A stretch of DNA of 64,000 nt from Candidatus Latescibacterota bacterium (GCA_965215195.1 CBDCDC010000002.1:4798219-4862218); one strand, 5' to 3'; shown: positions 22,422-33,916, numbered from the stretch's first letter. The notes: generated from the sequence alone by a model not told the origin. A program made the numbers and translations.

Positions 22422-25055
22422 TCAATTGTTCGCCGGGATGATCTTTTCTACTAATTGCTGCCGCATGTCCTTCCCATCAACCATTTTTTCTACGACCACG
22501 AACAGGCCCTTACTGTTGCTTTCCCGCTCCCACAATGCGCCAATGGTCCGCTTTTCGTTGGTATCTGATCCTTCGGCGATATGTGCGCCCTTGTATTCGA
22601 CGACGAGGAGACGACCGTCGTCTAGCAAGGCGACAAAGTCCGGGTAGAATTTGTCTGTTGCGGTGGGCAGCCAAAACGAGTTGGGATGACGCGCTACATT
22701 GCGAATCCAGTACTTCACTACCGACAGACTGTCGATGATCTGAGCGCATTGCACTTCCTCGCCGTCGTCCGCACCGTCAAAGGCGGGAACGCGATCCGGG
22801 CCCAAAAAATGCTTGCGCGGTTTCCAGCTACCGCGATAGTGCCGTTGATCCCAGTACATGTCGTCGGCAAATGTGAAGGCCGTGTCGAACGAGACCGTTG
22901 TGTTGGCCTCGGATTCAAAGAGGTACTGCTGATAGACATTGCTCCGTTCCGCTTGGCGAATGGCCGCGATCTTGTTCTCGATTTTCTTGGCGAGCAGAAA
23001 TTTGCAACGCATTAGCACGGCAATGGACATGCCGCGTGTGTTGAGCAGGTGATCGACTAGTTGGCGCAGCCATTTGAGCAATTCGCTCTGGTGAATATCC
23101 ATCTGGCGCACCTGCCGGTCGAGCCACAGGACGAGCGCCTCGGCGGTCCAGCCTTCGACGGCAATGTCCAGTGCCAATTGCTCCTCTTCGCTGGCGAACT
23201 GGTAGGTGATGCGGTTGCCGTCGAGGTCAATTTCAAAGCTGCGCGCCGTCTCGCGGATAGTGAACTCCTGCTCGTCCATTTTTGGCGAATAACCGGACAG
23301 GGACCAGTCGTGGTATTCCATGAACACATCTGTATCGGCGAATTCTAGGGTGCCCTCGATTTCCGCCATGAGACGCGGAATTTTGAATGGCTGCCCTTGT
23401 TCGACCGGGGATAGGTGCTCTTTGACTGCGGCGCGGTGTTGGGCAATGGCTGTGGCAAATCCTTTTCGCTCCTGCTCGGACAACGTCTTGTAGATTGCCT
23501 GCTCGCGCTCTTGATTGATCCAGCCGGTAAGCGCGATTTCGACCTGTCCTTCAGCGGTTTCGCGCACTAGCAATCCCTCGTGTTCAGCCTCTTTGAGTTC
23601 AGACAGGATTTCCGGGGTTGCCGGGGTCGTATATCTGAATACCGGCTCCAGCTTTTCCTGCGGACCAAACAAGTCTCTCTGAAAGTCAAGTGTGTGCTGC
23701 ACCGGCTCGATATTGTCGAGAGCTTCGTCTTCCTCAAAGCCCATGTCCACCAATTTGTCGGCCAAGGCGCGTGCCGCCTCGCCAAAAGACGGCTCGGACA
23801 GGAAGGCGTAGGCTTTGTTGAGGTCGGCTGTTTGGCGTTGCTTGGCGTAGGGCATCCGCAGTACGCGGCCGAGCAGTTGCTCGACGTCGGTTGCGCTTTG
23901 GATTCGCGATACCGAGCAGAAAATGTAGGCGAAGGAGCAGTCCCATCCTTCTTTGAGCGCCTCGACTGTAATGACGTATTCGATAGGACAGGTGCGGTCG
24001 AACAAGTCGATGCCGTTGAGTTCGCGCTGGTCGCCCGTGGCGATGGCGATTTTACTTTCGGGGATCTGCTCAATATCCATCAGGTGCTTTTTCAGGGCTG
24101 CGACTGTTACCTCTTGGTTTTTCGGCTGGGCTTGGAACAAGACGATGGGACGGATGTAGTCGGCATCGTTCTTGGCGGTCTTGGCAAGCGAAGCACAGGC
24201 GGAGATGGCTCCGCTCACCGCGCTTTGCCAAGCGTCGTGCTCGGCAAGCATGATGGGCAGTTTGATCATTTCCTCGCGCTTGAGTTCTTGGGCGGCGACG
24301 CTGTACAGGATGTTCGACTTGCGCTGTGGGGTCGCCGTGAACTCGACGATGGCACAGGGATTTACCCGCACCTGCATTTCCCGCGTCAGGCCGGTGACCG
24401 CGTTGTGCGCCTCATCGACGATCATCAACGGACGGTGCCGGTGCAGCAGGTTGGCAAAGGAGAATTTGACGGTGCCATTGTCCAGCGTTTCCAAGCCCGG
24501 CGCTGTTTGCGGCACCGCGGCAAAGTGCGGTTCCATATCCTCATTGTGGGCATACACCTTGCGCCCTTCGGTGCTCTTCACCCGCAGCGTTTGAATGGTG
24601 CCGACCACAATGCAGCAGTGGTCGTGCAAGTCGTGCGGGCGGATATGGGTGAAGTCGGCGATGTCGAATACACGCACCCGGCCGTCGAAAGCCTCGTCTA
24701 GCACTTGCCGATAAGCATGGCGGGTGTTTTTCAGGGCTTCGGCTGTCTGCCGGCGGATGGTGTTAGTCGGCACTAGCCACAGCACCAGTGGATAGTCCTT
24801 TTCGATATAGGCATTGCGGGCGATGGAGACAGCGTGGGCGGCGAGGACTGTTTTGCCGCCACCAGTAGGTAAGCGCAGGCAGACGTAGGGAACGCCTGGC
24901 AATTCTTTTAGCGGTGCGTAAGATTCGAGCCGCGTAGTCTGCTCGGGCTCTTTTGTTATAGCTTCGTAGGCGTTTTTGGGACCGGCGATACGCGTTTCCT
25001 CAAAGAAGCGGCGCAGGATGGCGAGGGTGTCGGCTTGATATTGTTTTAGCTGCAT
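22422..25055 (-). CDS. Type III restriction enzyme Res subunit (SF2 helicase + nuclease)
   Basis: PTGGGKT, DEAH, TAT, LKEGWD, QLLGRVLR; C-terminal YPDF...VEYKG. Confidence 0.88.
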   Translation of the reverse strand: MQLKQYQADTLAILRRFFEETRIAGPKNAYEAITKEPEQTTRLESYAPLKELPGVPYVCLRLPTGGGKTVLAAHAVSIARNAYIEKDYPLVLWLVPTNTIRRQTAEALKNTRHAYRQVLDEAFDGRVRVFDIADFTHIRPHDLHDHCCIVVGTIQTLRVKSTEGRKVYAHNEDMEPHFAAVPQTAPGLETLDNGTVKFSFANLLHRHRPLMIVDEAHNAVTGLTREMQVRVNPCAIVEFTATPQRKSNILYSVAAQELKREEMIKLPIMLAEHDAWQSAVSGAISACASLAKTAKNDADYIRPIVLFQAQPKNQEVTVAALKKHLMDIEQIPESKIAIATGDQRELNGIDLFDRTCPIEYVITVEALKEGWDCSFAYIFCSVSRIQSATDVEQLLGRVLRMPYAKQRQTADLNKAYAFLSEPSFGEAARALADKLVDMGFEEDEALDNIEPVQHTLDFQRDLFGPQEKLEPVFRYTTPATPEILSELKEAEHEGLLVRETAEGQVEIALTGWINQEREQAIYKTLSEQERKGFATAIAQHRAAVKEHLSPVEQGQPFKIPRLMAEIEGTLEFADTDVFMEYHDWSLSGYSPKMDEQEFTIRETARSFEIDLDGNRITYQFASEEEQLALDIAVEGWTAEALVLWLDRQVRQMDIHQSELLKWLRQLVDHLLNTRGMSIAVLMRCKFLLAKKIENKIAAIRQAERSNVYQQYLFESEANTTVSFDTAFTFADDMYWDQRHYRGSWKPRKHFLGPDRVPAFDGADDGEEVQCAQIIDSLSVVKYWIRNVARHPNSFWLPTATDKFYPDFVALLDDGRLLVVEYKGAHIAEGSDTNEKRTIGALWERESNSKGLFVVVEKMVDGKDMRQQLVEKIIPANN

Positions 25056-25058
25056 GGG

Positions 25059-26585
25059 TCAGGTGCGCGCTTTGATATCGTAGGGCGTCTGTTTGAAGAC
25101 AATGTCCTCCCGGTCAAGCGTCGCTGGCGTCAAGCGCGACTGCTCGCCATAGACCGTGAGCGGCCCGGCGAAATGGGCATCCTTGCGCGCAATTTCTTCC
25201 CGAATTACAGCGAGTGTTGCACGGGTCAAGACATTGCCTTTGTCGCCGAGGATGCCGTTGTACAGCAGGGCATAAGCGCGACCGTCGTGCAGGCCGAGGA
25301 AAGGCGAATCGCCGTTGCCGCGCCACGGACGCCCGGTCTCGCTGAAATAGACGTGGGCGGCCAGCACGGAAAAGCGAATGTCCGAGCGGATATGCCCTTC
25401 CTCGTCGAACACGGGCGGGCCGAGGCGGTAGAAGCGAAAGCCGCCGCCGCCTTGCCAGCCGACGCTTTTGGAGATGCCGCCTTGTTCGCCTTCTATGACT
25501 TTGTTCAGGCGCGGGACGCAATGGCTGATGGTATGCTCGCCCATTTCAATGCCGATGTAGCGGCGACCCATTTTGTGCGCGACGGCTGCGGTGGTGCCGG
25601 AGCCGAGGAAGGAGTCGAGGACGAGGTCGCCGGGGTTGGTGGCGATGTGGAGGATGCGTTGGATGAGGCGTTCGGGCTTGGGCGTTGGAAAGACATTATC
25701 GAGATTAAATTCCTTGACCTCTTTCTTTGCATCCTGATTATGACCCACCTCAATATGAGGCCATATTGTAACCGGGGTAATGCCATCCTGAGTTTCTGAA
25801 AGAAACTTCTTAATTCTTGGAACATTATTTCCCTTCCTGCCAAACCATATTCGATTGTCCTCGACAAGATCAATAAACCGTTCTTTAGAAAATTGCCAAC
25901 TTCTGCCCTTCGGCGGCCAAAATTCTTTCCCAGATAGATTTTGAATCGGATAAATATATTTTTCATTCGGTGTTTTAACTTGTATAGGCTGTGATGCCCA
26001 CGGCCCTCGGGGATCATCATCAGGATTGGAAAAACCTCCCCTCTGTTCTTCACTTCGAGGAAGCAAGTTGATCTTCCAGTTTTCCTTCCTCTTTGCATGG
26101 ACAACTATATGGTCATGATTATCGCTGAACCACCGCGCATCATTGGCACGAGTGTGTTTTTTTTGCCATACCACATTTGCTACAAAGTTACCCCGTCCGA
26201 AAATTTCATCCATAATGATTTTTAGGTAATGCCCCTCGTCGTCATCAATAATTACCCAGATAGATCCTTCCTCTGTTATCAGTTCACGCAATAATTCCAA
26301 GCGGGGATACATCATCTCCAACCACTGAGCATGTTCCAAATTGTCGTCGTAATGCTCAAAGTCCTTGCGAGTGTTATAAGGCGGATCAATAAAAACGCAC
26401 CTCACCTGTCCGGCGTAGAACGGGAGCAACGCCTTGAGCGCGTCCAGATTGTCGCCTTGGATGAGCATGTTGCCAGCGTCCGGGTCGCCGGCCGACAGGT
26501 CAGGGGCTTCTGCGAGGAGACGATAGGGGACGTGTGAGGCGGCGTGGATGTCGGCGTCGCGTGTTAGCCAGTGTAGGGTCGGCAT
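25059..26585 (-). CDS. Type III R-M Mod subunit (N6-adenine methyltransferase)
   Basis: IQGDNL, DPPYNT, TPKPE, DSFLGSGTT; directly upstream of Res. Confidence 0.92.
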   Translation of the reverse strand: MPTLHWLTRDADIHAASHVPYRLLAEAPDLSAGDPDAGNMLIQGDNLDALKALLPFYAGQVRCVFIDPPYNTRKDFEHYDDNLEHAQWLEMMYPRLELLRELITEEGSIWVIIDDDEGHYLKIIMDEIFGRGNFVANVVWQKKHTRANDARWFSDNHDHIVVHAKRKENWKINLLPRSEEQRGGFSNPDDDPRGPWASQPIQVKTPNEKYIYPIQNLSGKEFWPPKGRSWQFSKERFIDLVEDNRIWFGRKGNNVPRIKKFLSETQDGITPVTIWPHIEVGHNQDAKKEVKEFNLDNVFPTPKPERLIQRILHIATNPGDLVLDSFLGSGTTAAVAHKMGRRYIGIEMGEHTISHCVPRLNKVIEGEQGGISKSVGWQGGGGFRFYRLGPPVFDEEGHIRSDIRFSVLAAHVYFSETGRPWRGNGDSPFLGLHDGRAYALLYNGILGDKGNVLTRATLAVIREEIARKDAHFAGPLTVYGEQSRLTPATLDREDIVFKQTPYDIKART

Positions 26586-26653: not shown

Positions 26654-27310
26654 CTAGCGTCTCGATCTCGCTACTCTCTCCATCTCTTGAACTTCGTCTA
26701 AACAACAACTCTTGTACTTTGCACCGCTACCACAGGGACAAGGTTCATTTCTTCCAGCTTTATGTCGAGCGATATGGAATATATTCCTTGCGTGTTCCAT
26801 GAATCCCAAATCTCCATGTGAATACTCATCCCACAGATTCTTTCGAGCCGCTTCGATCCCAAACTGATCGGTATATGACATTCGATACAAGAAGGGAATA
26901 ACCAAATCATAAAGAAAACGGGCAATCGTCAGATTTTTCTCACGCGCATACCTAATACCTAAACAGCATGAATCGTCACAGGGGTTAACGTGTAAATCGA
27001 TCTTCTTTACGCCGCATTTCTTCGCAATCGCATTGGATCTTCCACCTATCTCAAACACTGTAGGCCAGCCATTGGGATGTACGGCATCAGTGTCTAGACG
27101 GATCTCAATCTCAAACACGTCGCAAATAACACTATCTGAGTTTCTAATAGTATCATCGCGCTCAAGTCTTTCGATTAGCATCCTTTTGGTTACACCATCA
27201 AAGCAAGCGCAGAAGTCCAATTCTCCAACGATCCTCTGAGCATTTTGATCGTACACCAAACTAGGGAAAGAATATCTCAGCCACTCGACATCGCTATTCG
27301 TCAACTTCAT
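26654..27310 (-). CDS. E2/UBC-like protein fused to a C-terminal SEC-C zinc finger (CBASS ancillary)
   Basis: WPTVFE...LHVNPCDDSCCLG resembles the E2 HPN..C motif; GRNEPCPCGSGAKYKSCC is SEC-C; ATGA overlap with the CD-NTase. Confidence 0.65.
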   Translation of the reverse strand: MKLTNSDVEWLRYSFPSLVYDQNAQRIVGELDFCACFDGVTKRMLIERLERDDTIRNSDSVICDVFEIEIRLDTDAVHPNGWPTVFEIGGRSNAIAKKCGVKKIDLHVNPCDDSCCLGIRYAREKNLTIARFLYDLVIPFLYRMSYTDQFGIEAARKNLWDEYSHGDLGFMEHARNIFHIARHKAGRNEPCPCGSGAKYKSCCLDEVQEMERVARSRR

Positions 27311-28281
27311 CGCGCATACGGCTTCCTAGGCGTTACCGTGACGGTGCCTACCCCTGTTCCTCGACGGCCCCCACTATTCCCACCGCCACCATCACCTCGC
27401 CTTTTCCCAAAACTATCTCCAAACACGTCGCGCCACTTTTCGATGCTGTCATCATGTTCTACGGCATCGAAAGCTTTGTTGATCTTGTCGTTGTAGATTT
27501 TGAACAGAGCCCTGAAGTGAGCGTACTTCTTTTGATCCCAGTGCCGCGTGAAATCTTCTTTCGGTAAGACGGGATTGGTGATCCTCGGCATCACTGGGTT
27601 GCTTTGCAAGAAATCGTTTATGCGATTCGAGACCGTCTTCAGGGCATCAGGCAAAGTTCTGAAGAGGTAGCCATCATTTTCACCATACACGGTGTGACCT
27701 ATAAGCGTGGTCAAGAGAATTGATTTCGCAGTGAAATTCCCCTTGTGGTCTCTGAGATATTTCAAGAGCCTCGTGACCCGTTTGAGGTTTCCGTGTGTGA
27801 CCGTGGTCTTATCGTTGAACCAATCCCTGTACCCTGTTCCATCGGTTGGCTCGAATTTGTTGGTCTCGTTATTGCAGATGTACTGATCCCTGTTTCTCGA
27901 AGGTATGCACGGGACAATGTCTAGGTGGAAATCGCCCGCATAGTCTAGGACCACGCATCTGGTTTTCCGACGCGCTTTCTCCGCATATACCCCGTTTTCT
28001 CTGAGGCATTGGTATAGCTCGTTGATGTAGTCCCTAGGATATTTGCTTATATACTTTATATACAGCAATACGTCGGCATCATATTCTTGGTTCTCTCTGA
28101 CGGGTTTGATGATCGTACGTAGGGCATACGACCCTTGGCGTTCGATCTTTATGTAAGAGTCCAAGTTTCTGGACAAAAATTCGCTGATAGCCTTCACACT
28201 ATCATTTAATCTGTCGAGCCGTGAGGGATTGAGATTTACCTCACCGTCGAGAAAGTCGTTGAAGAACTGAGTATGCTTCAT
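27307..28281 (-). CDS. cGAS/DncV-like nucleotidyltransferase (CD-NTase, SMODS) of CBASS
   Basis: QGSY...EYDADV, FHLDIVP, RLLKYLRD, SILLT, NPV; Gly-rich tail ending PRKPYAR. Confidence 0.88.
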   Translation of the reverse strand: MKHTQFFNDFLDGEVNLNPSRLDRLNDSVKAISEFLSRNLDSYIKIERQGSYALRTIIKPVRENQEYDADVLLYIKYISKYPRDYINELYQCLRENGVYAEKARRKTRCVVLDYAGDFHLDIVPCIPSRNRDQYICNNETNKFEPTDGTGYRDWFNDKTTVTHGNLKRVTRLLKYLRDHKGNFTAKSILLTTLIGHTVYGENDGYLFRTLPDALKTVSNRINDFLQSNPVMPRITNPVLPKEDFTRHWDQKKYAHFRALFKIYNDKINKAFDAVEHDDSIEKWRDVFGDSFGKRRGDGGGGNSGGRRGTGVGTVTVTPRKPYAR

Positions 28282-28367
28282 GTCGAAGATCCTCCTATTG
28301 GGTGTTCTTTATGGTGAATGCTGGAGCGGAATTTACAACAAATGGATGGTAGTAAGCAATTGGTATT

Positions 28368-29351
28368 TTATTCACTGTGGCTACCCCTTTCGATAGCGAG
28401 GAATTCGGCAATCCTTGGTGATTGGTGGGTAAAGATATGGTCCGCCTTTGAGATCCAATCGTCTCGCTTTCGCACATCGTCCAAGGGCAATGGCTGGTCC
28501 GATTCAAAGGTCAACCGAAAAATTTTCTCTGACCTGAGCGGGCTCTCACCCATGAGTAAGCAAAGCATGTTGTGGGCACTTTCGGACTGAAGGTTGAAGA
28601 TAACGTTGATGAACTTGCTGCGCTGCCAGCGAGTCAGCAGGCCCCACCCTTGCCAGCTATAGAGTAAACAGTCTTTCCATTTACCTTGGCTCCGAGGATA
28701 GAATACCTTGCTCTTACCAGTGCCAATGGAGAGGACTCGCACTCTTTTAAGCGGAATTTTGAGGCGATAATGAGCATCAATGATCGCCACGAGAGATGGA
28801 TTATTGGCCCAAAGGCCACCATCAGCGAGTTGGTACTTGTTATCAACTACGACAGGGTCGAAGTACGTCGGAGCAGAGCAGGAGGCTAAGACCGCATCCG
28901 ACACACGCACATTAGGATCCCGAACAAAGTCGTCGTGGTATTTTGTTTTGAAAACATGTACACAACCGTTGCCAATGTCAACGGAAGGTAGGATAAGTGG
29001 GATTTCAACTTGACCCAAAGTCATCTCGCCCAACATTTCCTCAAGGCGCGTCTTGAGGTTTTTACTCGAATATCGGCTCGTGAAAAGCTGTAAGGGACCG
29101 AGACTGGCTCGTAGTCGAGGGGCGAAGATCGCTTTGCCATGAGTTTTATAGAAGTCGGCCAATTGCACGGCCGTCTTGCCACAGGCCAGCCCGGCGGCCA
29201 GAATCGCTCCTGTACTGGTGCCAGCCAATAGGTGAAAGTGGCTTCTCCAATCGAGTTGCCACTCCTCTTCCATTCTTTTTAATAGATGGGCAGCAAAGAG
29301 TCCTCGAAATCCACCCCCATCAATAGCTAGGATGTAAAATGGCTCATTCAC
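28368..29351 (-). CDS. Patatin-like phospholipase, CapV-like CBASS effector
   Basis: DGGGFRG, GTSTG, SAPTYF, DGGLWANNP; GTG start after GGAGG; adjacent to the CD-NTase. Confidence 0.88.
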   Translation of the reverse strand: MNEPFYILAIDGGGFRGLFAAHLLKRMEEEWQLDWRSHFHLLAGTSTGAILAAGLACGKTAVQLADFYKTHGKAIFAPRLRASLGPLQLFTSRYSSKNLKTRLEEMLGEMTLGQVEIPLILPSVDIGNGCVHVFKTKYHDDFVRDPNVRVSDAVLASCSAPTYFDPVVVDNKYQLADGGLWANNPSLVAIIDAHYRLKIPLKRVRVLSIGTGKSKVFYPRSQGKWKDCLLYSWQGWGLLTRWQRSKFINVIFNLQSESAHNMLCLLMGESPLRSEKIFRLTFESDQPLPLDDVRKRDDWISKADHIFTHQSPRIAEFLAIERGSHSE

Positions 29352-29371
29352 GATAATCGCCTCCAAAATTA

Positions 29372-29424: not shown

Positions 29425-29880
29425 CTACTCGGCAAGAAACCCGTCGGCGTCTTCGAGAGTCAGGTAGCCGGCCTTGATTAATTTCAACACCAAGTCCTCC
29501 GTCTGATAGATTACCAAGTCTCTACGCCGGCGTTGCCCTTCAACGCATGCCCTTCGGTCCTGAAGTCCGGCGACCCAATTCCGCGTAAGCGCAACGGCCA
29601 GAACGGCGCACTCGCCGGCTCCAAGCCGCCCACCTGCCCGAAGCTCAGCAAATAGGGCGACCTCCACCGGATTGCGAACACTTTGTAAATCAAGTATGCC
29701 CTCAGCCACAGCATCTTCAACCGCCTCTTTTTGTTCTGGACGCCTTATTTCACCAAGCACTTGGTCGGGCAACACGACCGGTGTGCCAAGCTGACCGAGT
29801 AACTCAACACGACCGATTTTCACGAAATTCAGCAAGACCGACGCATCGAGGACAATCGGCACCGCGCTTGTCTGCTGCAT
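29425..29880 (-). CDS. PIN-domain (DUF3368-like) protein, possibly prematurely stopped
   Basis: VLDASVLLNF, LGAGECAVLAVA, QDRRA. Frame stays open past the TAG to 29344. Confidence 0.75.
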   Translation of the reverse strand: MQQTSAVPIVLDASVLLNFVKIGRVELLGQLGTPVVLPDQVLGEIRRPEQKEAVEDAVAEGILDLQSVRNPVEVALFAELRAGGRLGAGECAVLAVALTRNWVAGLQDRRACVEGQRRRRDLVIYQTEDLVLKLIKAGYLTLEDADGFLAE

Positions 29881-29890
29881 TCAAAGTACC

Positions 29891-31120
29891 TCAATCCGAA
29901 TCCGCCAAATCGAACATCGTCTCGTCGTCAATATCCAACAATCGCCCCACTTCGAGTAGCCGGCCCTGCGAAATTTCCCCACGCCACCACGCTTCCAGAA
30001 CCAGCGACAGAATCTGCCAATCCAATTCGCGGTCCCAATGTGCCTCGTCTGCGGAATTTTCTACATCGGAAAATGCTCTTACCGCACGCTGGTATTGATT
30101 AGCCTCTGCGGTCTGGTCGAGAAGCGTTTGGGCTTGTTCTAGGCTCACGAGGTTCAAGCCGCGCAACCGCCAAACCGCCGCGGCATAGCTCACCTCAAAA
30201 TGCCAAGCCAAAAGTGCCACGTCTGCGTAGGTTACATGCTGTGAGCGCGCCGGGCTACGCAACTGACCTTGGATACCCTCTTCGGTGACCGCATCCAGCG
30301 CCGCTTCCTCGCGACGCGTACCCCTCCCTTTGCCCAAGTTGTGCAGAAAATCTCGTACGCCCTCTTCGGGCATGAGGAAGGCGGCGGCAAAGGCATTGGC
30401 CCGCTGCTCGGTTTTCGTCTTGGCATTGTGGGCACTCGTAACCGTGGCCGGCTCATCGCGGTCCATGAGTGCGTGACCGTGTTCGTGGGCGTAGGAAAAC
30501 CGCCGCCGCACCGGTGCTTGGGTGAGGTTGGCCAAAATCGCCAAGCCAAAGTCGGGACTGCTCAGAAAGAGACCAGAGATTTCATCCGGCAGAGGCAACG
30601 CGGCCGCCCATATATTCTGGTGGGCTAAGGTCTCAGGCACTTTAACGGGCGCATGGCCCAAATCGAGACGCCGACGCTCCTGCTCGGCTACGAGTTGACC
30701 TTGGTCAATGGCCTGTCCGACCGATCGAGGGGGCGGCAACTCGTAACGTGGCAGGGAAACGACGGCCCTGCGGCCAATTAGCTGTCGCAACGACGCCCCT
30801 TCTCTGAGCAAGCGCAAACAACGCGACGCTTGCTTTTGAACGACCTCGCCTTGCAAGCCGGGTTCGGCGCGAAAGAGCGCGACGACCGGGTCTTCCTTTT
30901 GGACCGAGATATGCGGATCGACGAACCACTCGATCGGCCGACCGTACAAATCCGCAAGACGAGTTAGCTCGAGCGTGGAAACCTGCCGCTGGCCGGATTC
31001 CATGAGGCTGATCGCCGATCTCCGTAGGCCGAGTGCCGCACCGGCGACCTCCTGCGTGAGTTGCCGACTTTCCCGTGCCACGCGCAATCGCCGCCCGATT
31101 TCTTCAAGGGTAATGAGCAT
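29891..31120 (-). CDS. XRE HTH + ImmA/IrrE metallopeptidase fusion
   Basis: RLRVARE...TQE...ISLMESGQR HTH; RRRFSYAHEHGH (HExxH); EQRANAFAAAFLMP. Confidence 0.9.
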   Translation of the reverse strand: MLITLEEIGRRLRVARESRQLTQEVAGAALGLRRSAISLMESGQRQVSTLELTRLADLYGRPIEWFVDPHISVQKEDPVVALFRAEPGLQGEVVQKQASRCLRLLREGASLRQLIGRRAVVSLPRYELPPPRSVGQAIDQGQLVAEQERRRLDLGHAPVKVPETLAHQNIWAAALPLPDEISGLFLSSPDFGLAILANLTQAPVRRRFSYAHEHGHALMDRDEPATVTSAHNAKTKTEQRANAFAAAFLMPEEGVRDFLHNLGKGRGTRREEAALDAVTEEGIQGQLRSPARSQHVTYADVALLAWHFEVSYAAAVWRLRGLNLVSLEQAQTLLDQTAEANQYQRAVRAFSDVENSADEAHWDRELDWQILSLVLEAWWRGEISQGRLLEVGRLLDIDDETMFDLADSD

Positions 31121-31150
31121 GGAGCACCTCCGAGTCAATGACGGCAGTAG

Positions 31151-31543: not shown

Positions 31544-31697
31544 CCGGTGCGGCCCGGACGATCTGTCCGGCGCGGCTGTTGGCTATTTCGCCTTGTTCAA
31601 CGGCGATCCGCCCATTGACGATTACCCAGTTGATGCCCTGCGGATAGCGGTAGGGATCGGCAAAGTCGGCGCACTCGCCGATAGCTGCGGGATCGAA
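31544..31697 (-). repeat. 154-bp duplicated 3' end of the D-aminoacylase gene
   Basis: Near-identical (about 6 mismatches) to 32308-32461. Confidence 0.95.
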
Positions 31698-31707
31698 GAA
31701 AGCTGTC

Positions 31708-31920
31708 TCAAGTGTCTGCAACAAGCTGCTGAGCCTGTTGGTCAAGCACCCTAATGGTGCCCTGAATTGCGTCGACCTCGCGCTCCTCGAAGTACGCCTC
31801 ACCGCACTGAGCGCAGACCCAAGCCGGGACTGTGTCGAGGACCAAGTGATAGCCGTTGCGGTCGACGTGGAAGGGTGCTTTCGCGCGCTTCATCTGCCCA
31901 TGACAGTGGATGCAGTTCAT
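31708..31920 (-). CDS. YgiT/MqsA-type zinc-finger protein (putative antitoxin)
   Basis: MNCIHC...VPAWVCAQCGE pattern. Confidence 0.85.
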   Translation of the reverse strand: MNCIHCHGQMKRAKAPFHVDRNGYHLVLDTVPAWVCAQCGEAYFEEREVDAIQGTIRVLDQQAQQLVADT

Positions 31921-32249
31921 TTTGGTCTCCTTGTTCGCAAGTCTTGTTCCCACTCGGCCTCTGTGGGAAGGTACGCTGTGATTACTGCGAGAAAATCCTC
32001 CTTAGGCGCACAAACTACATGGATATCTCGCTGGTCAACTCCGTGGCCATGCAGCAGGCAGCTATGGCCGCGTGCGTTCTCGGGATAGTCCTCAATTAGC
32101 TCGCCCTGCATGATAACAACTCTAATCTCATTTGGTCTAATCATTCTGTCCGGTCGTGCCATTTGGCGAACTGCATGGGGAAGAAAGAGCACACGTTGAG
32201 TAGCGGCGCGTTGTACTTGTTCAAGAAATTCTTGTGAAGCCATTCCCAT
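31917..32249 (-). CDS. DUF4258 domain protein (putative toxin)
   Basis: HAVRQM, ELIEDYP, IHVVC, VITAYLP...W; ATGA overlap with the zinc-finger gene. Confidence 0.82.
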   Translation of the reverse strand: MGMASQEFLEQVQRAATQRVLFLPHAVRQMARPDRMIRPNEIRVVIMQGELIEDYPENARGHSCLLHGHGVDQRDIHVVCAPKEDFLAVITAYLPTEAEWEQDLRTRRPK

Positions 32250-32296: not shown

Positions 32297-33916
32297 TCAG
32301 GTCGAAGCCGGTGCGGCCCGGACGATCTGTCCGGCGCGGCTGTTGGCTATTTCGCCTTGTTCAACGGCGATCCGCCCATTGACGATTACCCAGTCAATGC
32401 CCTGCGGATAGCGGTAGGGGTCGGCAAAGTCGGCGCACTCGCCAATAGCTTTGGGATCGAAAACCACGAGGTCGGCCCAGTAGCCCTCGCGCAATAGACC
32501 GCGTGCGCCTAGGCGGAAGCGGGCAGCCGGGTGGCCGGTGAGCTTGTGGATGGCCTCTGCCCAGCGCAGCGCACCCTGCTCGCGGACGAAGCGGCGCAGG
32601 AAGTAGGGGAAAGCCCCATAGGAGCGGGGGTGGTGCTTGCCCTCGGCCAAGGTGCCCTCGGGCACCAGCGAGAAGCCGTCGGAGATGACGCCGCCGGCCG
32701 GATGGCGGGCGATGTTGAGGAAGTCCTCCTCAGACACGTCCTCGGCCAGCATCCACGGCCGCGCACGCTCTTCGACGAGGATGTCGCAGACCGCGTCGTG
32801 GGGCTGCTGGCCGCGCCGCCGACCGATCTCGGCAAAGCTCAAGCCAACTAGGGCGGCGTTTTGCTCGGCGCTGCCCAGCCAGATCTTGTCCCATTGCCCA
32901 TCCCGCGCCAAGTTGCGCTTGCGGCTGCCGCCGCTCTCGGCCCCGTACTGCCGGGTGTCCTGCTCGATCTGGGCGCGGGTCTCCGGGTCTTGTAGCCGCC
33001 GGAGCAGGGCCTCGTCGCCGCCGGCCAAGGCCCACGGGGGCAACAGCGACTTTAGGGTAGTGCTGCCAACCGTATAGGGAATGGCGTCGCAGCTAATGTC
33101 GCAGCCTGCGCGGCGCTTCTGGTCAATGGCGGCGAGCAGGTCGCGGGTCGCGCCGATCATGGGCGCACCAGGCTGCATGTGCGAGACGTGGGCGGCAACC
33201 GCAGCTTGCTCGCCAACGGCCATGACCTCGCCGACAGCTTGGGCAATCGACTCGGTCTGGTTGCGGATGTGCGAGGTGTAGATGCCGCCGTACTCAGAGA
33301 CGACCTTGCCCAACTCGACGAGTTCCTCCAGCGCCGCATACGGGCCGGGCGCGTAGGCCAAGCCCGACGACAGCCCCATTGCGCCGTCTTCCATTGCGCG
33401 GGCCACGAGTGCCTTCATTTGCTCCATTTCGGCCGCAGTCGGCGGGCGATCTTCGTAGCCCATGGCAGCGACGCGCACATTGCCGTGGCCGACCAACGTC
33501 GCGGCATTCGTGCCCAGTCCATGGGCTTCGAGCCGTTGGAAGTAGTCGCCGAAATGGGTCCAGTCGCACGCCAAGCCGCGGGTCATGGCCGGGTCGAGCG
33601 GGCCGTAGTACGGCTCGTAGTCGCGGGTGGGCGCGGCCGAGACGCCGCAGTTGCCCATGACTTGGGTCGTAATGCCCTGCATCAGGGAACTGAGCGCGCG
33701 GCCGTCGAGGGCGATGGTCAGGTCCGAATGCGTGTGGATGTCGATAAAGCCGGGGCAGGCGATGCGGCCCTCGGCGTCAATGGTGCGGCTTGCTTCGGCT
33801 GTAGAAAGATCGCCGATGGCCACGATGCGGCCCTGCTCAACGGCGATGTCGCCGCTAAAAGCCGGCTGGCCGCTGCCGTCGAGGAGCTGGGCGTTGCGGA
33901 CTAACAGGTCGTACAT
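32297..33916 (-). CDS. N-acyl-D-amino-acid deacylase (D-aminoacylase family amidohydrolase)
   Basis: PGFIDIHTHSD, GITT..GNCG, HPRSYG-F, ADLVVFD. Confidence 0.9.
   Translation of the reverse strand: MYDLLVRNAQLLDGSGQPAFSGDIAVEQGRIVAIGDLSTAEASRTIDAEGRIACPGFIDIHTHSDLTIALDGRALSSLMQGITTQVMGNCGVSAAPTRDYEPYYGPLDPAMTRGLACDWTHFGDYFQRLEAHGLGTNAATLVGHGNVRVAAMGYEDRPPTAAEMEQMKALVARAMEDGAMGLSSGLAYAPGPYAALEELVELGKVVSEYGGIYTSHIRNQTESIAQAVGEVMAVGEQAAVAAHVSHMQPGAPMIGATRDLLAAIDQKRRAGCDISCDAIPYTVGSTTLKSLLPPWALAGGDEALLRRLQDPETRAQIEQDTRQYGAESGGSRKRNLARDGQWDKIWLGSAEQNAALVGLSFAEIGRRRGQQPHDAVCDILVEERARPWMLAEDVSEEDFLNIARHPAGGVISDGFSLVPEGTLAEGKHHPRSYGAFPYFLRRFVREQGALRWAEAIHKLTGHPAARFRLGARGLLREGYWADLVVFDPKAIGECADFADPYRYPQGIDWVIVNGRIAVEQGEIANSRAGQIVRAAPAST

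Follow-up and report, generated by a model that had tools for sequence, protein, structure and literature searches.

A lone E2 enzyme with a SEC-C zinc knuckle in a probable E2-only CBASS operon of a Latescibacterota bacterium

The window, a 64,000 nt stretch from a Candidatus Latescibacterota bacterium, probably carries an intact E2-only (type II short) CBASS operon, in which residue C116 of a lone E2 enzyme is proposed to capture the cyclase without an E1, and in which a SEC-C zinc knuckle would serve as a structural part of that enzyme. This reading is carried by gene content, protein folds, conservation, synteny and a complex prediction run with controls. E2-only CBASS is a known and partly characterised class, so the locus is less atypical than was first thought. 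What is new relative to SmE2, the enzyme of Serratia marcescens, is the SEC-C module, an Ala where the Serratia cyclase has Gly, and a compact cyclase that lacks a C-terminal E2-recruiting fold.

Gene content and flanking genes

The three genes of the operon lie on the (−) strand. The first (28368–29366; 332 aa, TTG start) encodes CapV, a patatin-like phospholipase effector, with matches to Patatin (Pfam, E 1.5e-32), to a PADLOC phospholipase effector (1.3e-88) and to the NCBIfam model 'CBASS cGAMP-activated phospholipase' (232.8 bits, cut-off 200). Its translation contains the motifs GGGxRG, GTSTG and DGG, and by family match CapV would be the nucleotide-activated effector that adjoins the cyclase. 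It is followed by the CD-NTase, an oligonucleotide cyclase of 324 aa (27307–28281), and by the E2 + SEC-C protein of 218 aa (26654–27310). The stop codon of the CD-NTase gene overlaps the start of the E2 gene in the sequence ATGA (27307–27310). A patatin, a tailed CD-NTase and a coupled 218-aa E2-like/SEC-C protein had been described in the first-pass annotation, and each of them is present.

The same annotation had read the locus as a CBASS in which the E2 stands alone, with neither E1 nor JAB, and this holds within the window: no E1 (ThiF) or JAB gene was found among the genes flanking the operon (Pfam, PADLOC). The sole ThiF and Prok-JAB matches of the whole genome are at least 1.17 Mb from the operon. 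The order CapV, CD-NTase, E2 is repeated in all of the related genome loci (10/10), a recurrence far beyond chance. A survey of the neighbours of E2 homologues gave the same picture, with a CD-NTase directly upstream of the E2 or fused to it in 26/27 related loci (10/10 and 16/17); the exceptional 17th locus of the second set has no upstream DNA.

The operon is flanked by a type III R-M system, by a PIN-like gene and by a gene that encodes an HTH-M78 protein (Pfam, PADLOC). The last of these (29891–31138, (−) strand; 415 aa) combines an HTH_3 domain (8e-10) with a Peptidase_M78 domain (7e-14), carries HEHGH in its translation, and matches the PADLOC profiles RmrA (1.1e-22), capP (4.5e-17) and capH (1.3e-4). 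An HTH module and an HExxH-containing M78 module beside a defence operon are features of the CapH/CapP pair, found here within a single protein. As in the described pairs, in which an HTH repressor and an M78 metallopeptidase adjoin CBASS (Lau et al., bioRxiv 10.1101/2022.04.27.489752), the two modules adjoin the operon, whereas the locus differs from them in having one 415-aa protein, encoded on the operon's strand, and a PIN-like gene between regulator and capV. Both CapH–CapP fusions and a vapC-like neighbour are mentioned by Lau et al., who describe CapH/CapP as DNA-damage-responsive regulators of CBASS. Related operons are also flanked by HTH and M78 genes, and divergent pairs of separate genes are found among more distant loci. 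Judged by its sequence, the HTH-M78 protein resembles a CapH–CapP fusion and is a probable transcriptional regulator of the operon, which is probably either cotranscribed with this upstream gene or controlled by its product.

The PIN-like gene (29425–29880, (−) strand) lies between the regulator and CapV genes and matches PDC-S70 (PADLOC, 1.1e-11), with a weak PIN_6 match (E 0.08 here, 0.011 in a relative). It is truncated by a TAG at 29425–29427, where relatives have Trp (four same-genus orthologues aligned). A scan of the locus for promoters and terminators gave sites no more numerous than in shuffled sequence. One site, TTGACA-17-TAAACT, is situated just 5′ of the regulator gene.

The E2 domain, the cyclase tail and their predicted complex

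Residues 1–175 of the 218-aa protein (26786–27310, (−) strand) form a UBC-like domain. The protein matches the PADLOC E2 profile PDLC00872 (3.1e-26), as does its N-terminal domain alone (1.1e-17), and the structural model has a pLDDT of 92.7 and a pTM of 0.88. In an exhaustive VIA search of 48,161 chains, its top match was 8hsb_B, the Serratia CBASS E2 (rmsd 3.3 Å, 127 residues aligned, identity ~13%), at a Z of 7.2 that is 'middling' on the VIA scale; the following rows were mostly UEV, UFC1, FANCL, BubCD, UBC and Cap2 chains. A UBC-like fold, as had been suggested, is thereby supported at the level of structure. Other comparisons gave little: Foldseek of the model against the PDB returned no match at E ≤ 0.001 (best UFC1, E 0.047; SmE2 at rank 11), a PDB sequence search with the single E2 and with a 65-sequence profile returned SEC-C peptides only and no E2, and Pfam UQ_con gave no match at E ≤ 0.01.

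Three residues of this domain are proposed to be catalytic: H107 (26990–26992), C116 (26963–26965) and H165 (26816–26818), all (−) strand. They are 100% conserved in an alignment of 88 sequences, comprising the window's E2 and 87 divergent representatives that are 23–49% identical to it. Residues 106–117 read LHVNPCDDSCCL. The E2-like motif pointed out earlier in this segment stands insofar as H107 and C116 are conserved family-wide; C111 is not conserved and C115 is conserved in closer relatives only, and both were rejected as the catalytic Cys on the wide alignment. The canonical HPN motif is absent: D105-L106-H107 is followed by V-N-P, and the His alone is conserved.

The closest studied system is the E2-CBASS of Serratia marcescens, for which SmCdnG–SmE2 structures are available (PDB 8hsb, 8yjy). 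There, removal of E407 exposes G406 of SmCdnG and the cyclase is captured without an E1; the catalytic residues of SmE2 are C101 and H87, and H152 is also conserved (Yan et al., bioRxiv 10.1101/2022.05.25.493364). H107, C116 and H165 would parallel H87, C101 and H152, an equivalence that we infer from fold-level alignment ranges and not from residue superposition.

The cyclase matches SMODS (2.5e-29) and DncV-like NTase (8.9e-11) in Pfam and the PADLOC cyclase PDLC00793 (2.9e-112), and its active site is intact, with G50-S51, D68-x-D70 and D121 invariant in 65 homologues. The model (pLDDT 89.6) shows a compact core of ~295 residues, and Foldseek matches it to CdnC, CdnD, CdnG and CdnB, all at ~1e-15, a tie that precluded assigning a clade by structure. 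The best sequence matches, both distant, are 9woo, a 'cyclic GMP-AMP synthase' (9e-14), and SmCdnG (9.3e-12), and the NCBIfam cGAS model scores 83.5 bits, below its cut-off of 150 bits. Cleavage of internal cyclase loops by a phage protease is reported as a trigger in clades A, D and G; an activation loop of this kind seems unlikely for the present cyclase, the model of which has no low-confidence internal loop. The last helix of the model ends at residue 287, and the cyclase is without the C-terminal helix and three-stranded sheet that, according to Xiao et al. (mLife 2026, PMC12948482), are conserved in E2-CBASS and recruit the E2, so recognition of the E2 must differ from that of SmCdnG.

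In place of that fold is a tail, residues 296–324 (27310–27396, (−) strand; GDGGGGNSGGRRGTGVGTVTVTPRKPYAR), with a Gly-rich linker followed by V-T-V-T-P-R-K-P-Y-A-R, that is, ending in KPYAR. Residues 298–324 are predicted to be disordered (pLDDT <50). The motif P-x-x-[PQL]-[YWFH]-X is found in 119/120 cyclase homologues, the residue after the aromatic being Ala in 112 of the 119, and exactly one residue trails the Ala position in 105 of the 119 (R in 77, Q in 14, K in 4). The conserved C-terminal Gly of E2-only CBASS is not present; Ala takes its place, in the same geometry, and Ala is accepted as a conjugation residue in Cap2 systems (Jenson et al., PMC10097602). A323 is proposed as the candidate processing and attachment site, with R324 leaving. 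A conserved small residue that is penultimate rather than terminal implies that the E2 itself primes the tail by proteolysis. Some distant members have no Ala after the aromatic (…PPWLSY, …KPWLNDEI, …RPYYAYFNQK); the scissile bond may differ, and the aromatic may be the true anchor.

Prediction of the cyclase–E2 complex, another check proposed in advance, placed tail residues 310–324 on the active-site face of the E2, where a single strand of the tail adds to the E2 sheet. The ipSAE was 0.67 (runs 0.68, 0.55 and 0.67), whereas the best control scored 0.00. This ipSAE mark was reached by 58/80 solved complexes and by 2/110 mismatched pairs, a calibration that holds only roughly because custom alignments were used for the complex; with a solved CdnG–E2 complex in existence, part of the score could also be memory, although the two E2s are only ~13% identical. 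Between runs, ≥58% of contacts agree, with a partner pLDDT of ≥84. The predicted interface consists of cyclase residues 310–324 and E2 residues 42–50, 104–111, 116–120, 159–166, 195 and 197, the last two of which are SEC-C residues that touch the cyclase; it also takes in the cyclase N-terminus and cyclase residues 274–276 and 293–298.

An interface this extensive, reaching beyond the tail, would also suit an E2 that is mainly a brake, keeping the cyclase inactive in a covalent or tight complex until infection, with the tail as an autoinhibitory tether rather than a conjugation handle that activates. The findings of Krueger et al. on the type II CBASS of B. cereus, where conjugation prevents activation, agree with such a role, as does a copy with a stop within the E2 in one relative (G026). 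In the sole E2-CBASS that has been studied, however, E2-mediated conjugation is reported to activate cGAMP synthesis, and natural cyclase–E2 fusions are frequent, which under a brake would stay permanently inhibited unless cleaved. A main role as a brake seems rather unlikely on this balance.

The SEC-C knuckle and its distribution

The SEC-C motif occupies residues 187–204 (26699–26752, (−) strand) and matches PF02810 with an E of 6.5e-09, scoring 35.9 bits (cut-off 20.4). It shows the CxC...C[CH] signature, in which C191, C193, C202 and C203 are the predicted zinc ligands; C191, C193 and C202 are invariant in 65 sequences. A C-terminal helix (residues 204–217) follows. In the model, the motif is placed confidently (pLDDT 82–92 over residues 160–218) and packs on the UBC domain, so that SEC-C appears as an integral part of the E2 and not as a tethered, independent module.

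The knuckle is not peculiar to this protein. A profile restricted to the E2 domain retrieved 357 protein clusters (E ≤ 1e-10); SEC-C is present in most of the full-length ones. The motif is present in 87 of the 98 representatives of 195–300 aa, and in 15 of 17 cyclase–E2 fusions, though the query was without SEC-C. These CD-NTase–E2 fusions account for 17 of the best 150 E2-domain representatives, and all 17 have CD-NTase Pfam domains; the tail motif is retained at the junction in 10/18 fusions, which fits cleavage in cis. A contig scan with the full-length alignment was dominated by the SEC-C pattern and gave, among the 80 loci listed, a single full-length relative (L001), for which reason later searches used the N-terminal domain only. 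The public record of one homologue (P0058) gives it no name but 'SEC-C metal-binding domain-containing protein', so its link to defence is easily missed.

These results alter how the locus had been classed. The terms 'atypical' and 'fusion' in the first-pass annotation were overstated, as SEC-C is constant in a large E2 clade, and the architecture is not new to classification either, since six E2-labelled PADLOC profiles already include the SEC-C segment. No publication linking SEC-C to a CBASS E2 was found in the searchable literature, and within that scope the statement that the architecture has not been characterised stands.

SEC-C of the E2 matches the C-terminal zinc-binding peptides of SecA, and also YchJ, in PDB sequence searches, and the pattern CxCxSGxKYKxC[CH] is common to all of them (PF02810; 1ozb, 1sx0, 1tm6, 9l6b). 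It differs from these in being fused to a UBC-fold enzyme in a defence operon, in a genome without a SecB match. The first-pass annotation had proposed that SEC-C adds a targeting or sensing function. The known partners of the SecA C-terminal motif are SecB and the ribosome. By analogy, the knuckle could be an independent targeting module that docks the E2 and cyclase on a cellular partner or at the membrane on which CapV acts, and conjugation would then be confined to a particular site or a particular target. We consider docking of this kind unlikely, and its consequence for conjugation equally so. One of the matching SecA peptides was crystallised with SecB (1ozb), Krueger et al. describe type II CBASS cyclases as conjugable to the membrane-associated PspA, and SEC-C often carries the basic residues K198 and K200. 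A search of the genome (95.2% complete) for the SecB family gave no match, which makes docking on SecB itself unlikely; moreover, the knuckle is modelled confidently against the UBC domain with no flexible tether, its residues 195 and 197 contact the cyclase in the complex model, and related loci have no partner gene conserved beside the operon. Very doubtful is a sensor switch, by which loss of zinc from the knuckle or oxidation of its four cysteines in infection would alter the E2 and free or activate the cyclase, making the E2 the infection sensor: the knuckle adjoins the active-site face in the complex model, the title of PDB entry 9l6b calls the SEC-C protein YchJ a ROS-sensing factor, and no trigger of E2-CBASS was found described in the publications consulted, but zinc knuckles are mostly structural, SEC-C is conserved here as an ordinary motif with S195 as the only clade-specific extra residue, and a different trigger, the phage protease acting on cyclase loops, has been reported.

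Proposed mechanism and related systems

Trimming of the terminal Arg followed by E1-free conjugation, suggested in the first-pass annotation, fits the work on SmE2, the aromatic-Ala-X tail, the residues H107, C116 and H165, and the complex model; we infer all of the chemistry, including which bond is cleaved, and likewise the product of the cyclase and what SEC-C does. The disordered tail of the cyclase would lie along the E2, with V314–T317 as an added strand beside E2 strand 43–46, and the terminal K-P-Y-A-R would reach the H107/C116/H165 site. There, C116, helped by H107, would attack the A323–R324 peptide bond in the manner of a cysteine protease or transpeptidase, releasing R324 and forming a cyclase~E2 thioester without E1 or ATP. 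A lysine, either of the E2 or of a second cyclase, may then accept the acyl group, and cyclase activity would be tuned in this way. Upon infection, the cyclase would make a cyclic dinucleotide, probably a cGAMP, which would activate the CapV phospholipase and lead to cell death. In this E2 clade SEC-C would be a permanent structural element, packed beside the tail-binding groove; most likely it stands in for the C-terminal tail (H152...K159) that is unstructured in SmE2 and gives the active site its shape, and it perhaps offers an acceptor lysine, K198 or K200. A bolder version, in which SEC-C closes over the tail at C116/H107/H165, supplies K198 or K200 as acceptor and, through its four-cysteine zinc site, gates conjugation by zinc or redox state in infection, appears improbable. 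Were it true, CBASS would gain a new means of sensing or gating infection by phage, and the catalytic role would be the first for a SecA-type zinc knuckle.

The preferred reading, of E1-free capture by an E2 with a structural knuckle, places the locus beside SmCdnG–SmE2. Each operon pairs a cyclase with a lone UBC-fold E2 and has no E1 or JAB; in each E2, one Cys and two His are conserved near the active site; both cyclases end in a small residue and then one last residue that can be removed (G406–E407 in SmCdnG); and cyclase–E2 fusions are known in both branches. In contrast to SmE2, which has ~160 aa and an unstructured tail (K159), the window's E2 has 218 aa, with a helix and SEC-C at its end. 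SmCdnG is a clade G enzyme of ~407 aa with a recruiting C-terminal fold, whereas the window's cyclase has 324 aa and a disordered tail only. SmCdnG is attached through Gly, whereas attachment through the Ala after the aromatic is proposed here, and the two E2s are not connected by sequence profiles.

Canonical type II CBASS shares with the locus a cyclase C-terminus that is a ubiquitin-like handle with a Gly or Ala end (Ledvina et al.; Jenson et al.). CapV effectors are common in these systems, and the E2 domain of Cap2 is a weaker structural match to the window's E2 (7to3_A, Z 5.2). Unlike canonical systems, which have Cap2 (E1–E2) and Cap3 (JAB), the window has neither an adenylating E1 nor a JAB isopeptidase, and the small residue that is terminal in those systems is penultimate here.

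E2-only CBASS is the simplest ubiquitin-like conjugation known, with one enzyme acting as protease, E1, E2 and ligase, and Serratia is the sole example studied so far, although published counts of E2-CBASS operons run from 406 to 616. The locus is part of a second, large and widespread branch that is characterised by a zinc knuckle, an aromatic-Ala-X handle and a cyclase without a recruiting module. Comparison of the two branches would reveal which features are essential for E1-free conjugation, and SEC-C, which occurs widely in bacterial proteins whose role is unknown, would gain a testable function.

The operon and its surroundings

Three genes run head-to-tail on the minus strand. They encode the patatin phospholipase CapV (28368–29366, 332 aa; Pfam Patatin, 1.5e-32), a 324 aa CD-NTase (27307–28281; Pfam SMODS, 2.5e-29; PADLOC cyclase, 2.9e-112) and a 218 aa E2 (26654–27310), in which Pfam recognises only a SEC-C motif (residues 187–204, 6.5e-09) and PADLOC E2 profiles cover residues 54–215 (PDLC00872, 3.1e-26). 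CapV scores 232.8 bits against the NCBIfam model 'CBASS cGAMP-activated phospholipase' (cut-off 200), and the E2 start codon and cyclase stop codon share ATGA. The GC content of the three-gene stretch is ~47%, compared with ~64% in the flanks. A genome search found no match to ThiF or JAB less than 1.17 Mb from the operon, so that the first-pass annotation of a patatin, a CD-NTase and a translationally coupled 218 aa gene, with neither E1 nor JAB, was correct in every item. Outside the window, 1.2 Mb off (G000:C2:3621540–3622568), one 765 aa frame matches both ThiF (E1-like) and Prok-JAB; it probably represents an unrelated system.

Directly 3′ of the CBASS genes, and inside the same low-GC island, is a type III restriction-modification pair (25059–26585 and 22422–25055, minus strand; together 22422–26585) with Mod of 508 aa and Res of 877 aa (PADLOC 3e-185 and 4e-182). 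This pairing recurs in the related locus L098.

Upstream, a minus-strand gene (29891–31138) encodes a 415 aa protein in which HTH and M78 peptidase domains are joined, matching PADLOC capP and capH. A PIN-like gene (29425–29880, minus strand) separates it from capV. The same order, with PIN-like genes of 172–179 aa, precedes the operon in three loci of the same genus (L095–L097), while in L098 the PIN-like gene is present and the contig ends beyond it. Split, divergent HTH and M78 pairs lie beside the operon in L001, L100, L101, L113, L125 and L127 (of the near-identical L099 and L100, the flanking-ORF scan covered L100), and an M78 gene alone was detected in L123. Lau et al. report that CapH/CapP controls CBASS; they count 15 fused forms and note a vapC-like gene next to a fusion. 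The PIN-like gene ends at a TAG (29425–29427), a position occupied by Trp in four orthologues from the same genus; conservation continues through the following 26 codons, and read-through would finish 23 nt within capV, as in relatives. Either the TAG arose recently by nonsense mutation or it is an error of sequencing. A 154 nt direct repeat (31544–31697 and 32308–32461, 96% identical) is a copy of the 3′ end of an amidohydrolase gene (32297–33916). It brackets a DUF4258 gene (31917–32249) and an MqsA-like gene (31708–31953), and the arrangement resembles insertion of a small toxin-antitoxin cassette that duplicated its target.

Related loci and spread of the SEC-C form

The E2 N-terminal domain was matched in 9 of 61 related genomes (the window's own included) and in 10 of 168 genomes of the phylum sample, a patchy distribution typical of defence genes. 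The E2 homologues are linked to CD-NTases: the order CapV, CD-NTase, E2 is maintained in all ten genome loci (L001 and L095–L103, of which L099 and L100 are near-identical), and among 17 further loci (L110 and L113–L128; L114 and L115 near-identical) the CD-NTase is immediately upstream of the E2, or fused to it, in 16, the 17th (L128) being without upstream DNA. For these further loci 17 E2 ORFs were listed: 14 have a SEC-C signature, and of the three that lack it, one is truncated at the locus end. Patatin is the main effector in these loci, with Cap15-type effectors in L121 and L124 and an HNH-SAVED effector in L114.

L114 and L115, both metagenome contigs, carry two E2-SEC-C CBASS units in tandem: a cyclase fragment, E2 and HNH-SAVED effector, then patatin, cyclase and E2. 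In the same-genus genome G026 (L095 and L102, both on G026:C13), the E2 of the orthologous operon is broken by a TAA, leaving a 154 aa ORF; a second, divergent CapV, CD-NTase and E2-SEC-C operon is intact and lies beside DUF499 and DUF1156 genes.

A word-indexed search gave 318 relatives of the whole E2, with PF02810 in nearly all of the 120 matches listed. To guard against circularity, a profile of residues 1–175 only was searched against 1.84 billion cluster representatives, giving 674 matches at E ≤ 0.001, of which 357 reached E ≤ 1e-10. Among the best 150, the CxC...C[CH] signature was found in 87 of 98 proteins of 195–300 aa, 15 of 17 longer proteins (all 17 being CD-NTase-E2 fusions) and 8 of 35 shorter ones, mostly fragments. 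Searched alone, the SEC-C segment of the window's E2 also matched six PADLOC profiles labelled E2, at their C-terminal ends. The architecture is therefore common and is already represented in a defence-annotation database, and its supposed novelty to defence tools does not hold. That the fusion is uncharacterised agrees with the literature searched, where no publication was found tying a CBASS E2 to SEC-C or to zinc; the single paper containing both 'SEC-C' and 'CD-NTase' concerns unrelated systems. Elsewhere in the genome, SEC-C motifs at G000:C2:435562–435618 and G000:C2:3966434–3966490 lie in frames of 448 aa and 208 aa, neither matching the E2-domain profile, and another lies in a 1091 aa frame that is probably SecA.

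E2 fold, cyclase tail and predicted complex

The whole-chain E2 model is confident (AlphaFold2, 65-sequence alignment; pLDDT 92.7, pTM 0.88). The suggested UBC fold gave only weak rows with Foldseek, but was recovered in an exhaustive ranking of 48,161 PDB representatives: the Serratia marcescens CBASS E2 (SmE2, 8hsb_B) ranked first (Z 7.2, rmsd 3.3 Å, 127 residues), followed by UEV, FANCL, BubCD, UFC1, numerous UBC E2s and Cap2. A Z of 7.2 is middling by the alignment tool's own warning; the match list is nonetheless consistently UBC-like. When aligned with 87 cluster representatives (23–49% identity), H107, C116 and H165 are 100% conserved, C115 is conserved in closer relatives only, and C111 is not conserved. 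C191, C193 and C202 likewise reach 100%, in sequences selected for the SEC-C motif; Lys occupies the K198 position in 77% and the K200 position in 61%.

The modelled cyclase (pLDDT 89.6) is a compact CD-NTase with residues 298–324 disordered, and CdnC, CdnD, CdnG and CdnB match its structure equally well, at ~1e-15. The C-terminus follows P-x-x-[PQL]-[YWFH]-X in 119 of 120 homologues; of these 119, 112 have Ala after the aromatic and 105 have a single trailing residue (R 77, Q 14, K 4). The motif is retained at the cyclase-E2 junction in 10 of 18 natural fusions. In distant loci more residues trail the motif, and Leu, Ser or Tyr can follow the aromatic, leaving the aromatic anchor as the only general feature of the tail.

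Modelled together (65-row alignment for each partner), cyclase and E2 gave an ipSAE of 0.67 (runs 0.68, 0.55 and 0.67), whereas none of three controls scored above 0.00. Of 80 solved complexes, 58 attain this ipSAE mark, as do 2 of 110 mismatched pairs. Runs share at least 58% of contacts, with partner pLDDT of at least 84. The confident interface comprises cyclase residues 1–6, 274–276, 293–298 and 310–324, and E2 residues 42–50, 104–111, 116–120, 134–143, 159–166, 169, 173, 195 and 197, the best-defined contacts being between E2 strand 43–46 and tail residues 314–317. From these predicted residues, the tail would cross the E2 to the H107/C116/H165 site, bordered by the SEC-C knuckle. The model is support for cyclase-E2 binding rather than proof of it, and part of the score is possibly memory of a related solved complex, although the E2 is ~13% identical to the one there.

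Likely mechanism and relation to Serratia E2-CBASS

E2-CBASS is a recognised class, with 616 operons in the account of Yan et al. For Serratia, the published section 'Cysteine protease activity of E2' describes removal of E407 to expose G406, interconversion of a G406-C101 thioester and a G406-K159 isopeptide, a catalytic H87, and H152 as pH sensor. The mechanism put forward by the first-pass annotation, trimming of the terminal Arg and conjugation without E1, is the Serratia one transferred to a sister clade. Most likely, C116 with H107 would cut after A323 and, with no E1 involved, bind the cyclase in a thioester; transfer of the acyl group to a lysine would follow, modulating cyclase output, and the nucleotide product would activate CapV.

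Three features distinguish the window's system from that of Serratia: the SEC-C knuckle on the E2, Ala following an aromatic residue where Serratia has Gly, and a cyclase of 324 aa without an E2-recruiting fold. According to Xiao et al. (mLife 2026), the cyclases of E2-CBASS are longer, belong mostly to clade G, recruit E2 through a C-terminal helix and three-stranded sheet, and conserve the terminal Gly alone, SmE2 being 18 kDa; Jenson et al. show a C-terminal Gly or Ala for cyclases from Cap2/Cap3 operons. The SEC-C most likely stands in for the loose C-terminal tail of SmE2, forming a rigid wall to the active site, and the acceptor lysine may lie within it, K198 and K200 being the candidates. 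Alternatively, SEC-C may be a zinc or redox switch, or the E2 may be mainly inhibitory. SEC-C may also have a docking role, although a search of the genome (95.2% complete) turned up no SecB. The locus is real and intact, and belongs to the known class of E2-only CBASS, within a clade that bears SEC-C and is widespread.
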